From: Eledone cirrhosa | Lineage: Eukaryota | Assembly (NCBI GenBank): GCA_964016885.1 | Contig: OZ024742.1 | Location: 340,814,001-340,878,000, forward strand | DNA: 64,000 nt | Direction: 5' to 3' | Shown here: positions 11,700 through 62,311 of the stretch, in pieces | Layout of the letters: every line of letters starts with the position of its first letter | Numbering within the stretch: position 1 is the first letter of the stretch | Notes under the pieces: model-generated | The model's database searches: none | What the model was told of the DNA's origin: nothing | Seen by the model: the letters and a program-made list of their open reading frames with translations, nothing else | Translations under genes and position numbers: made by a program

Positions 11700-11779
11700 T
11701 GTCTCCTGATGAATCCGAACTCTGGGCAGTTCCTATTAATTGGATGTCTAAAAATACGGATGAAACCATGGTAGAGATA
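11700..11779 (+). ncRNA. Type I hammerhead ribozyme (minimal palindromic stem III)
   Basis: tgtctc-CTGATGA-atccg...cggat-GAAA-CCATGG-TA-gagata. Confidence 0.85.
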
Positions 11780-14257: not shown

Positions 14258-14730
14258 TAAAATAACAGAGCCCTCTTTGGATTTTAGTCTTCAAATTTTT
14301 TATTATTACTATATATATATATATATATTTATCGTTCTTTCGTTGCTACAGATCACGCGGCTAAATTAGCGGTCGCGCTATTTTCAATTTGCAAAGCCCT
14401 TTAAACAGTATGTTATTACTCTGAGGTTTATTCCTTGTCGAGTGCTTGGCTCCACTGCTGAAGGCATTCGTTGGCTTGACTGCTGATCGAACTTCGAATA
14501 TGCTGTACTATTGTATATATATATATTGTTATACTTGGGGAGGGTCATATTTGTGTAATATTGCCAGAATTAATAACAGAACACACTCACTGTTTGGTTG
14601 GTTTTCCCTTTTCGCTTCTGTGTCTTTTATATCGGTAATCTAATTTATTCGGTCCTCAATGTTGCCATTGATTTACCAACGGTAAAAAATTATACAGATA
14701 CAATATAGACACAAACAGATATATATAGTT

Positions 14731-14773
14731 TATCAAAGTTCTTTCGTTGCACATCTGCAACATCGTCAGTGGT
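14731..14773 (-). ncRNA. Minimal hammerhead, GAAAGAACUU family
   Basis: rc: acca-CTGACGA-t gttgca gatg tgcaac-GAAA-GAAC-TT-tgat. Confidence 0.6.
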
Positions 14774-16147
14774 GCTATTGTTTCCTCCCGTTGCATTGTA
14801 TTTTCTATGCCATCTTTATTTAGTCTGTTTATATATTTATTTATTAGTTTATTTTATTTTGTCTTCTTTGCGCATGTGTTTGCGTATGTGTATAGGGTTT
14901 TGTTTGATGTGTGTTCGTGATTGGGAGACTGTGTATTGGTTAATGTATTCTATCTTTACTAGTGTGTGTTTATATGTGTTTGTTGTTATTGTGCTTGCGT
15001 ATGTATTTATTTATTTATTTATCTATTTATTTATTTATACTTCTCTTAGGTCAGTGTTGTTTGTTTGGGTGTTGTTGTTATTCCATTCATTCTTTCTGTT
15101 TAGTCTTGGTCTTCTAAGTTCTATTTCACTGGCATCTCTGATTTGCCTATCTGCTGGGTCATTTCTATGTTTAGATATTATTCTAATTTCTATGTTGTCT
15201 ATGTTACCGTCATGTTGTTGTCTGGCATGTTCGTATAGTACTGACCCGTTTTTTCGTCCTTTTAGTTCCCCCAGTGTTGGTCTATCCTTTCACCTATGCT
15301 ACGAGCTGTCTCACCTATGTATGTTGTTGTCATGTTTCTGCAAGTACCCTCTGTACATCTTATGCTATAGACTACGTTTCTAGTTTTACAGTTTATCCGG
15401 GGGTTTACCTTACATATGATACATTTCCTATTAGTACAGTGGGTTTTCTTAAAAGGGTAGGTCTTGCTGATCAGGGATTTTATGGTGGTTCCTGGCTTTT
15501 CTACCACCTTAATCTTTAAGTGGGTCTTTCTCAGGGTCTTTCTACACTGGTTAGCTAATTTCCCTCCAGGGGTAGCGTCCACAAACATGACACTCTGGTA
15601 TCTCTGGTTGTCGTACCATGAGGTGGCTTTCCCTATCTTATGTCTAGCCCTATCTAAGCTATTCCATGATTTTCTCCTGTATAATGGGCAAATTCCTTTC
15701 CTATCCAGTTCTATGATGTTCTTATACTTCTCCATGGCTCCTTCGTATATTATGAATCTGTCTCTTTGGTTGTAGCCAGAGAACTGCATGTGGTTGATGA
15801 AGTGTTGGATGTGAAATAGAACTTAGAAGGCCATGGCTAAACAGAAAGAATGAATGGAATAACAACAACACTGACCTAAGAGAAGTATAAATAAATAAAT
15901 AGATAAATAAATAAATACATACACAAGCATAATAACAACAAACACATATAAACACACACTAGTAAAGATAGAATACATTAACCAATACACAGTCACCCAA
16001 TCACGAACACACATCAAACAAAACACTATACACACACACAAACGCATGCGCAAAGAAGACAAAATAAAATAAACTAATAAATAAATATATAAACAGACTA
16101 AATAAAGATGGCGTAGAAAATACAATGCAACGGGAGGAAACAATAGC

Positions 16148-16191
16148 ACCACTGACGATGTTGCAGATGTGCAACGAAAGAACTTTGATAA
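16148..16191 (+). ncRNA. Minimal hammerhead, GAAAGAACUU family (inverted pLTR copy)
   Basis: acca-CTGACGA-t gttgca gatg tgcaac-GAAA-GAAC-TT-tgataa. Confidence 0.6.
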
Positions 16192-16506
16192 ACTATATAT
16201 ATCTGTTTGTGTGTATATTGTATCTGTATTATTTTTTACCGTTGGTCAGTCAATGGCAACATTGAGGACCGAATAAATTAGATTACCGATATAAAAGACA
16301 CAGAAGCGAAAAGGGAAAACCAACCAAACAGTGAGTGTGTTCTGTTATTAATTCTGGCAATGTTACACAAATATGACACGTAAATAAAGGGAATAGCAAG
16401 AGTGTAAACAAACAAAGATCGTGAAGCAACGAAAAGTGAGGAAGAACGAGTCAAGTCCCATATGTAACCCATTTGCCACCCCCGCAGCACGTTTATTCTC
16501 ATATTT

Positions 16507-21974: not shown

Positions 21975-22585
21975 AAATGTAAGTATGTATGTACGTATAC
22001 GTACATACATATATGTATACAGACGTACAGTAGTATGTATATCTATACATACATGTACACATATATACATGCACGTATCGGTTTACCGAACATTTATTAT
22101 AATGCTCGGTTTATTTCTTTGTAAACAAACAAACAACCCGAATTACGCCGTACAGTGTTTAAGCAACCACGTCACCTTTTTGTTCAACACTGACACAGGA
22201 ACGATGTACTAGTTTCAAGCTTATTAGCTATCGTCAGCATCGTATACCTTCCTGCCAGAGGGTTGAACATCTGAAAGTATATACTTTCCTTATGCATATT
22301 AACGGCTGAGCAACCTAATTTGCATATCGAGTGCGTTCAGTCGGCTGGGCGCACCGAAAACGGCGGCGTAATTCGGGCTGTTTGTTTGTTTACAAACAAA
22401 TAAACCGAGCATTAAAATAAATGTTCGGCAAACCGATACGTGCATCTATATATGTGTACATGTATATATATATATACATACTACTGTACGTCTGTATACA
22501 TATATATATGTACGTATACGTACATACATACTTACATTTAAGTAAGTGCCGTACTAAGAGTGAGAAATGAAATTTCGTTTCATTC
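21975..22585. repeat. Copy of the 466-nt HHR repeat family with an inverted arm
   Basis: Homologous to 56956-57700; 21975-22150 and 22365-22540 are inverted. Confidence 0.8.
22201..22243 (-). ncRNA. Minimal type I hammerhead ribozyme
   Basis: rc: acgatg-CTGACGA-t agct aata agct t-GAAA-CTAG-TA-catcgt. Confidence 0.85.
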
Positions 22586-25619: not shown

Positions 25620-27999
<2,380 letters not shown>

Positions 28000-28068
28000 T
28001 ATGAAGAGAGAAGAAACATTTAGATATAATTAGTAATAAAATGTATCATACCTAAACTGCTCCTAGAT

Positions 28069-28158
28069 TCCTCGACTACGTAGTTTCGTGGCATAAACAA
28101 AAACAATACATCATAAAGATATAGAGTCCTTGCGAGGTCTGCTGACTTATCAAGAGGA
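28069..28158 (-). ncRNA. Hammerhead ribozyme, U3-A8 variant
   Basis: rc: tcctc-TTGATAA-gtcagca...tgccac-GAAA-CTACGTAG-TC-gagga. Confidence 0.7.
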
Positions 28159-28435
28159 TACCTCATTTTACTAGTCTCAAGAACGCGTCTACACGACGTG
28201 AGAAAGAATCCCAAAAGGGGGAGGGGGAGATAGTCACGCGATATAACGGTCGAGAAACAGAGCTAAGCCTCTTATAACCCCGAAGAAAATACCACGGAGG
28301 CGGAGGGGGTATTTATATCGAAGAGGCTTAGCTCTGTTTCTCGATCGTTATATCGCGTGACTATCTCCCCCTCCGCCTTTTGGGATTCTTTCTCACGTCG
28401 TGTAGACGCGTTCTTGAGACTAGTAAAATGAGGTA

Positions 28436-28525
28436 TCCTCTTGATAAGTCGGCAGACCTCGCAAGGACTCTATATCTTTATGATGTATTGTTTTTGTTTA
28501 TGCCACGAAACTACGTAGTCGAGGA
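28436..28525 (+). ncRNA. Hammerhead ribozyme, U3-A8 variant
   Basis: tcctc-TTGATAA-gtcggca...tgccac-GAAA-CTACGTAG-TC-gagga. Confidence 0.78.
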
Positions 28526-28762
28526 ATCTAGGAGCAGTTTAGGTATGATACATTTTATTACTAATTATATCTAAATGTTTCTTCTCTCTTCATAATGTAT
28601 TTTTAACTCTGATACTGGTTCAGTCTAGTTCAACCGGATTGGTCTGTCCCAGTCATTCATTGAGCAACATCGGTGAAGTTGGCACCCTTAACTCACGGTT
28701 GGGTGCGGATGCATTCATGTATATGTGTGTGTCCGAATGTATCTGTGTGTTTCTAAATATAT

Positions 28763-28803
<41 letters not shown>

Positions 28804-56955: not shown

Positions 56956-56998
56956 ACGGTGCTGATGATAGCTAACAAGCTTGAAACTAGTACATCGT
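56956..56998 (+). ncRNA. Minimal type I hammerhead
   Basis: acggtg-CTGATGA-t agct aaca agct t-GAAA-CTAG-TA-catcgt. Confidence 0.88.
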
Positions 56999-62232: not shown

Positions 62233-62311
62233 TCACCCAGACAGCTTTCGTCAGCTGTTTCGCAAAATTAATTGTGAAGAAGAATACCGATTCTTGCTCA
62301 TCAGTGGGTGA
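62233..62311 (-). ncRNA. Canonical type I hammerhead ribozyme (GUC)
   Basis: rc: tcaccca-CTGATGA-gcaaga...ttttgc-GAAA-cagct gacgaa agctg-TC-tgggtga. Confidence 0.92.

Follow-up and report, generated by a model that had tools for sequence, protein, structure and literature searches.

Metazoan non-LTR retrozymes have been proposed to be non-autonomous derivatives of Penelope-like elements (PMC7229834; bioRxiv 10.64898/2026.07.22.740005), and the word "inverted" is absent from the main text of the first of these papers (PMC7229834). In the Penelope-like elements themselves, hammerhead ribozymes are located in the pLTRs and a dimer arrangement is known, and about 1,300 motifs with a U3-A8 pair have been described in connection with the Penelope-like elements of Schistosoma (PMC4209133). 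Natural U3-A8 cores have been reported in a survey that covered all domains of life, together with the statement that such variants had already proved active in vitro (PMC3088659). Insertions of EN+ Penelope-like elements can consist of an inverted 5'-truncated copy and partial tandems, often with a tail at one end only and with a bias for TA, and tandem non-autonomous elements, Chlamys such as MRC1, have been described in the same work (PMC8557442). How the tandem and inverted insertions arise is named there as a question that needs an in vitro system (PMC8557442). The only reconstituted Penelope-like system is that of the Anolis element Poseidon PAc, in which both target strands are cut and extended in vitro, the tail is delimited by two internal sites, downstream of the hammerhead, at which the RT starts, and the ribozyme is dispensable for insertion in vitro (PMC11167929).

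The window discussed here is a stretch of 64 kb from Eledone cirrhosa, the genome of which measures 3.0 Gb and is rich in TA microsatellites and Penelope-like fragments. The original prediction described a near-perfect inverted repeat with the hammerhead core UUGAUAA in both arms, and this was confirmed: in the alignment, the 280-bp arms (27994-28273 versus 28321-28600) differ by 3 mismatches and 0 gaps. The arms of the hairpin predicted at 27994..28600 are thus real, but the element continues to 28764. The whole insertion (27994..28764, corresponding to block 1195-1965 of locus L001) consists of two 5'-truncated copies of a ~590-bp repeat, placed head to head, with both 3' ends entering (TA)n. 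The left arm (27994..28321, minus strand) is 328 nt long, with its 5' end at unit position +343 and its 3' end at a short site, +80 after the predicted cut. The right arm (28321..28764, plus strand) is 444 nt long, with its 5' end at unit +391 and its 3' end at a long site at about +245. The arms overlap by 1 nt at their junction, and the 47 nt that had been taken for a loop are the longer 5' part of the left arm, not a separate loop. Between the short and the long site, which are both fixed, lie ~165 nt, a "tail" (28601..28764, plus strand) that only the right arm has. The (TA)n target tract flanks the insertion on the left (27947..27995) and on the right (28766..28801), and the single insertion holds less than one repeat unit per strand.

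We regard it as highly probable that this hairpin is an insertion of a ~590-bp non-coding U3-A8 repeat, which is likely a non-autonomous Penelope-like element (a non-LTR retrozyme). Its RNA was likely copied two times, starting once from each of the cut DNA strands, by an enzyme of Penelope type that it borrowed. The partial tandems, the inverted 5'-truncated copy, the one-end tail and the TA bias match Penelope-like elements, and the unit is therefore read as their non-autonomous passenger; by analogy with published insertions, the hairpin is their usual head-to-head insertion product. Since the U3-A8 core, the opposite-strand pair and the inverted repeat have all been published for Penelope-like elements, the finding that was originally flagged is an ordinary one.

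The predicted duplication of the ribozyme holds in that each arm carries one hammerhead, with the correction that the two lie on opposite strands (28436..28525, plus; 28069..28158, minus). In the plus-strand motif, stem I is formed by TCCTC (28436-28440) and GAGGA (28521-28525), and the core UUGAUAA (28441..28447; TTGATAA in the DNA) comprises U3, U4, G5, A6, U7, A8 and A9. It is followed by a stem II with a long hairpin extension, GAAA (28507-28510), the palindromic stem III ACTACGTAGT (28510..28519) and C17 (28520), with the cut predicted at 28520/28521. The minus-strand motif has its core at 28153-28147 and C17 at 28074, with the cut predicted at 28074/28073. Both strands have what defines a type I hammerhead: a YUGANRA core with a Watson-Crick 3-8 pair, GAAA and a UH cut site (GUC), with stems I-III surrounding the core, stem I open and G10.1-C11.1 present. 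The left-arm hammerhead has lost one pair of stem II through a G-to-A change (28143), and the present copy is likely decaying.

RNA folding placed the hammerhead fold only 1.1 kcal/mol above the minimum-energy fold, and the single-strand fold of the 116-nt ribozyme region was no more stable than shuffles (z -0.97, -0.51). Stem III has a computed energy of +1.5 kcal/mol as a hairpin and -12.9 kcal/mol as a two-copy duplex; because it would be unstable in the first form and stable in the second, the ribozyme is likely of the dimer type. Only one ribozyme is present per strand in this copy, so a partner in trans would be needed for cleavage. The 5' strand of stem I (28431-28441, plus strand) can also form a small hairpin of its own, GAGG/CCUC, which is present in the predicted circular fold and could, according to this model, keep the monomer inactive. 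At gathering thresholds, Rfam gave 0 matches in the whole 64-kb window; canonical C3-G8 motifs in the window that were found with our own descriptor were likewise missed, and the Rfam result is therefore not attributable to the U3-A8 pair.

A splice-donor-like GT (28542-28547, plus strand) lies ~22 nt past the predicted cut and is conserved in all subfamilies seen, to 66% identity, while its surroundings vary. A 5' intron is known in Penelope elements. For an intron that would start at the conserved GT, neither of two candidate acceptors led to an open frame by eye, and no acceptor could be assigned.

The exact ribozyme pattern has 7,155 matches in the genome and 0 for the reversed control, so the hammerhead is not a product of chance. 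The first 100 of the listed motif matches, all on one contig, fall into 51 clusters: 23 single motifs, 13 same-strand arrays and 15 mixed-strand clusters, and all 15 of the latter are in head-to-head orientation. Tandem arrays contain 2-5 same-strand units at a spacing of 585-607 bp. The monomer measures 588-595 bp, ~591 bp in the arrays and ~590 bp as a round figure. (TA)n adjoins 105 of the 106 mapped 3' ends listed, overlapping loci counted. A search of the units for a Penelope-like protein gave no match inside them. The ORFs of at least 150 aa listed in L001-L027 belong to microsatellites or flanking elements, except for one 169-aa frame that spans array units. In addition, the unit was present in all four contig runs, which are of unknown type and uninformative on expression, with no core difference among those listed. 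One natural unit that was folded as a circle gave a z of about -7 against 40 shuffles. Searches of the literature on C3U/G8A swaps and on cephalopods yielded nothing on this repeat family.

A genome search for the family had been set beforehand as a test, in which other copies with CUGAUGA would have spoken for chance mutations. No such copy was found: the genome pattern counts are 7,155 for U3-A8, 0 for C3-G8, 14 for C3-A8 and 10 for U3-G8, the C3-A8 and C3-G8 counts coming from a slightly looser pattern than the U3-A8 count. The 24 single-change cores are scattered and at the level of post-insertion mutation. When relatives were sought that have either a canonical core or a shorter stem II, 7 matches came up and C3-G8 was not among them; three more distant relatives had no ORF. 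As no C3-G8 relative was found, the swap predates all copies seen and is itself not visible, and fixation alone indicates only descent from a single source element. The original prediction had drawn selection on catalysis from the double change. Fixation amounts to inheritance and does not carry that claim; what speaks for it are compensatory stem changes between subfamilies, and these concern the transposing lineage only. The U3-A8 pair had also been called rare, which does not fit the ~1,300 motifs in the Schistosoma elements (PMC4209133) and the other U3-A8 families in this genome.

The subfamilies, at about 86%, 78% and 66% identity, retain the core, and their stem III occurs in several forms. 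The palindrome CUACGUAG has 7,068 matches and the palindrome CUGCGCAG has 49, with two half-changed forms between them that total 38 by subtraction, and a third palindrome, CUGUACAG, is found in 39 of the 42 motifs of the farthest subfamily. For the analysis of pairs, 10 rows were chosen across the subfamilies and the misaligned row L141 was left out. In these rows, 95.9% of the cells in the stem alignment are paired. Two-sided changes affect 7 of 27 pairs, which belong to stems I, II and III and to the extension of stem II; all 10 rows have the same core bases and the GUC site. Shuffle controls reached these values in 0/500 cases for the cells and the score and in 26/500 for the pairs, so that the pair count alone is not beyond shuffles. 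Because the rows share descent and also served to derive the structure, the significance of the shuffles is overstated and the covariation inflated. Since the subfamilies keep the core and change stems I-III in a compensatory manner, the fold has likely been selected in the transposing lineage. These comparisons of sequences thus suggest that selection likely acted on a dimer-type ribozyme in that lineage, not in this copy.

The hammerhead could instead be a folded relic or a protein-binding handle, with copies made from uncut multimeric RNA and the fold kept for recognition by the RT. In Anolis, hammerhead mutants insert normally in vitro and no RNA-seq reads end at the cut site (PMC11167929), and weak in vitro cutting by metazoan Penelope hammerheads (PMC4209133) is cited for this reading as well. 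In our data, a cleavage footprint in the 5' ends is weak, with only 2 of 54 arm ends within 2 nt of the cut site, and the arrays continue unbroken across it; with unbroken arrays and no pile-up of 5' ends, an uncut multimer fits as well as a circle. Against a relic stand the core bases and the GUC, which are the same in all 10 aligned rows, in contrast to the changing stems, and stem III, which has passed through three states that are each palindromic, as expected if dimer cleavage matters. Position 7, the free position of the core, differs in two distant relatives, a weak point since the pattern fixed most of the other core bases. On this balance, loss of ribozyme function appears rather unlikely, and a ribozyme kept under selection in the transposing lineage is preferred.

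Past the predicted cut, the 3' ends of the insertions occupy two fixed positions, +80 nt and about +245 nt, and enter (TA)n. The 66 loci of the main family were merged into 45 stretches with 46 blocks, of which 1 was cut by the edge of a locus, 16 were single-armed and 29 were two-armed. A long and a short end are combined in 28 of the 29 two-armed blocks (27 of 28 if a duplicated block is counted once); the remaining block has an odd end, and no block has two like ends. The loci for end mapping were chosen by a similarity search, by which like-ended pairs were equally findable. Among the 22 two-armed blocks of the 78% subfamily, long plus short is seen in 16, one end is unresolved in 6, and 0 have ends that are alike. 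In the 66% subfamily, where the end sites are at +62 and about +235, the combination is seen in 16 of 17 two-armed blocks, two of which are a likely duplicate pair; the 17th reads as long plus long owing to an interrupting repeat and resolves to long plus short. A repeat of ~150 bp interrupts older-subfamily copies at L120, L157 and L161, twice at the long-end site.

The 5' ends are variable in the 27 main-family insertions that were mapped, and those of the long-end arms are spread across the unit. Of 54 5' arm ends, 12 lie between +385 and +394, next to an inverted repeat within the unit, and the inner junctions have an overlap of 1-11 nt in 20 of the 27 insertions. Across blocks, arm lengths range from 78 to 1,464 nt and the inner junction differs at every locus. 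L1-style twin priming, in which one arm stops at the start of the other, was considered and rejected because the 5' ends of the long-end arms are spread over the unit.

Long inverted arms, the lack of an ORF and TA-rich targets would also be expected of a DNA transposon of the foldback or MITE-like kind, whose terminal inverted repeats are long, the hammerhead then being incidental. Such a transposon has matching terminal repeats, whereas the two ends here are different sites of the unit, ~165 nt apart. Nor do the range of arm lengths, the inner junction that is different at each locus, the 16 of 45 complete blocks that are single-armed and 5'-truncated, or the common head-to-tail arrays agree with it. 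This origin is already contradicted by the end map and is scarcely credible.

The two arms of an insertion resemble each other more than they resemble arms elsewhere: for shared arm variants, the median distance is 0 within an insertion and 3 between insertions (19 insertions). One explanation is a single priming event, after which the first cDNA folds back to give the second arm and an endonuclease trims one end, leaving a one-sided tail. The shared variants agree with this, a tail has been ascribed to endonuclease-mediated resolution of the intermediate (PMC8557442), and folding back is geometrically possible in 17 of the 27 insertions. In the other 10, including 27994-28764, each arm holds sequence that is absent from the other, so that folding back cannot have produced one arm from the other; as a general account, single priming is improbable. 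The two fixed arm ends likely mark where copying starts, and two distinct fixed ends together with shared arm variants point to two primings on one RNA.

In the mechanism that we propose, a tandem array would be transcribed, and two hammerheads would pair via their palindromic stem III and cut out monomers, which may then circularise. An RT/GIY-YIG protein would nick both strands of the TA tract, and reverse transcription would begin at +245 on one strand and at +80 on the other. Synthesis of the two cDNAs would end at varying positions, and short inverted repeats or microhomology would allow them to anneal. An inverted repeat with a one-sided tail would result, and the hairpin would be a by-product. 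The asymmetry may come from a dimeric enzyme that gives one strand the +245 start and the other the +80 start on one RNA, so that every two-armed insertion becomes long plus short; this part of the proposal is tentative, a serious candidate that we would stop short of calling probable.

No autonomous RT/GIY-YIG partner sharing the ends was found among the best candidates scored, and the other loci had no consistent ORF neighbour. Fragments of Penelope-like ORFs do lie near other copies; they are scattered, and their frequency is about that of the whole window. At L003:1-1007, a unit copy abuts an ORF that is broken off near its C-terminus, which we take from its motifs to be Neptune-like and whose protein family has at least 150 close copies; a Pfam search with its last 318 aa found no family. 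This ORF was rejected as the parent, as the unit is present at 1 of 30 loci of that protein family, and the other family loci whose 3' ends were in view among those listed have an ORF end and a 3' region of their own.

The original prediction that a read-through transcript would form ~280 bp of dsRNA agrees with the predicted fold, a long near-perfect duplex with 344 pairs and -582 kcal/mol, in which the sense core would be paired with the antisense copy and thereby buried. With the hammerheads on opposite strands, any single transcript contains one sense and one antisense copy. Such a duplex could be the product of a host-selected hairpin gene, in which the ~280-bp dsRNA would feed small RNAs or A-to-I editing and silence the family, and the long near-perfect duplex predicted for read-through is what this would require. 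The geometry, ends and junctions are nevertheless those that insertion produces, and unrelated loci show them too. In addition, the arms differ by 1%, near the copy-to-copy level, which does not indicate an old conserved hairpin. We consider a hairpin gene very improbable. With a duplex as the predicted fold and this geometry in 15 of the 51 clusters sampled, such dsRNA may well be formed incidentally. The hairpin is thus likely a by-product of insertion that needs no function, and a functional role of the dsRNA is putative.

About ten hammerhead motifs lie within the 64-kb window. At 27844-27900 (plus strand), ~50 nt before the TA tract of the insertion, there is a type I hammerhead from a different family with the canonical C3-G8 pair, and Neptune-like RT/endonuclease fragments lie 1.1 kb upstream of it on the same strand (25736-26728). 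An older Penelope-like copy may have its 3' end here, in which case its TA flank was used a second time. Another long inverted repeat (14544-16377), with 491-nt arms at 97%, overlaps a broken Penelope/Poseidon-like GIY-YIG fragment (15095-15822, minus strand) and is likely another inverted Penelope-like insertion. Further type I hammerhead motifs with a canonical core lie at 62235-62309 (minus strand) and, given by the position of the core, at 11706, 20210, 23234, 49327, 56962 and 57428 on the plus strand and at 22237 on the minus strand. Most of these further motifs have a palindromic stem III, and those at 56962 and 57428 are identical and 466 bp apart. Beyond this family, 527 kb of DNA was scanned with a descriptor that leaves positions 3 and 8 open, which gave 13 distinct motifs with C3-G8, 4 with U3-A8, 1 with U3-G8 and 0 with C3-A8 (reversed-sequence control of that scan: none). 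A looser scan showed three other U3-A8 hammerhead families, with the cores UUGAUAA, UUGAGAA and UUGAAAA, at L057, L117, L011, L015, L063 and L106.

The family is a clean and natural source of data on the way in which tandem and inverted insertions of Penelope-like elements come about. The long-plus-short rule, observed in three subfamilies, and the paired arms, which have variants in common but cannot all stem from folding back, give a sharp prediction for the reconstituted Anolis system (PMC11167929). If asymmetric double priming is true, the ~165-nt spacing of the sites and the thousands of young copies record the rule cleanly and offer a direct substrate for testing; under that model, a structured 590-nt circle with the U3-A8 ribozyme would be the likely template. 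In addition, surveys confined to CUGANGA would miss more than 7,000 hammerhead motifs in this genome.

Like metazoan non-LTR retrozymes, the repeat is non-coding, occurs in tandem with a single type I hammerhead in every unit, and has a GC content below 45%. Its monomer is ~590 bp, versus ~300 bp typical of animal retrozymes (PMC7229834), a typical value and no strict limit, and it is unlike them in the U3-A8 core, the long stem II extension and the frequent head-to-head insertions. With natural U3-A8 hammerheads in general it shares the same covariation of the core (PMC3088659), and activity of the present family is a prediction. The Cercyon elements of Schistosoma likewise have U3-A8, a short stem I and a dimer-type palindromic stem III, and opposite-strand pairs occur in both, the Cercyon motifs being 100-700 bp apart (PMC4209133). 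In contrast to Cercyon, stem III is a 10-nt palindrome here, stem II has a ~35-nt hairpin extension, and the repeat family is young and uniform, without an attached ORF.

The insertions agree with those of EN+ Penelope-like elements and Chlamys in the inverted truncated copy, the partial tandems, the one-end tail and the (TA)n targets, whereas the tail is ~165-175 nt long here versus the published 30-40 bp (PMC8557442). In the Anolis system, the start sites are adjacent and no strand difference was seen, while the sites here are ~165 nt apart with one per arm (PMC11167929). A strict pairing of long and short ends or a tail of ~165 nt was not found stated in this literature, the supplements of which may list the element (PMC8557442, PMC4209133, bioRxiv 10.64898/2026.07.22.740005). 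Unlike the elements described in PMC8557442, every resolved two-armed copy here has one long and one short end; as the one-end tail is already in that paper, the long-plus-short rule is a sharper count of a known trait.
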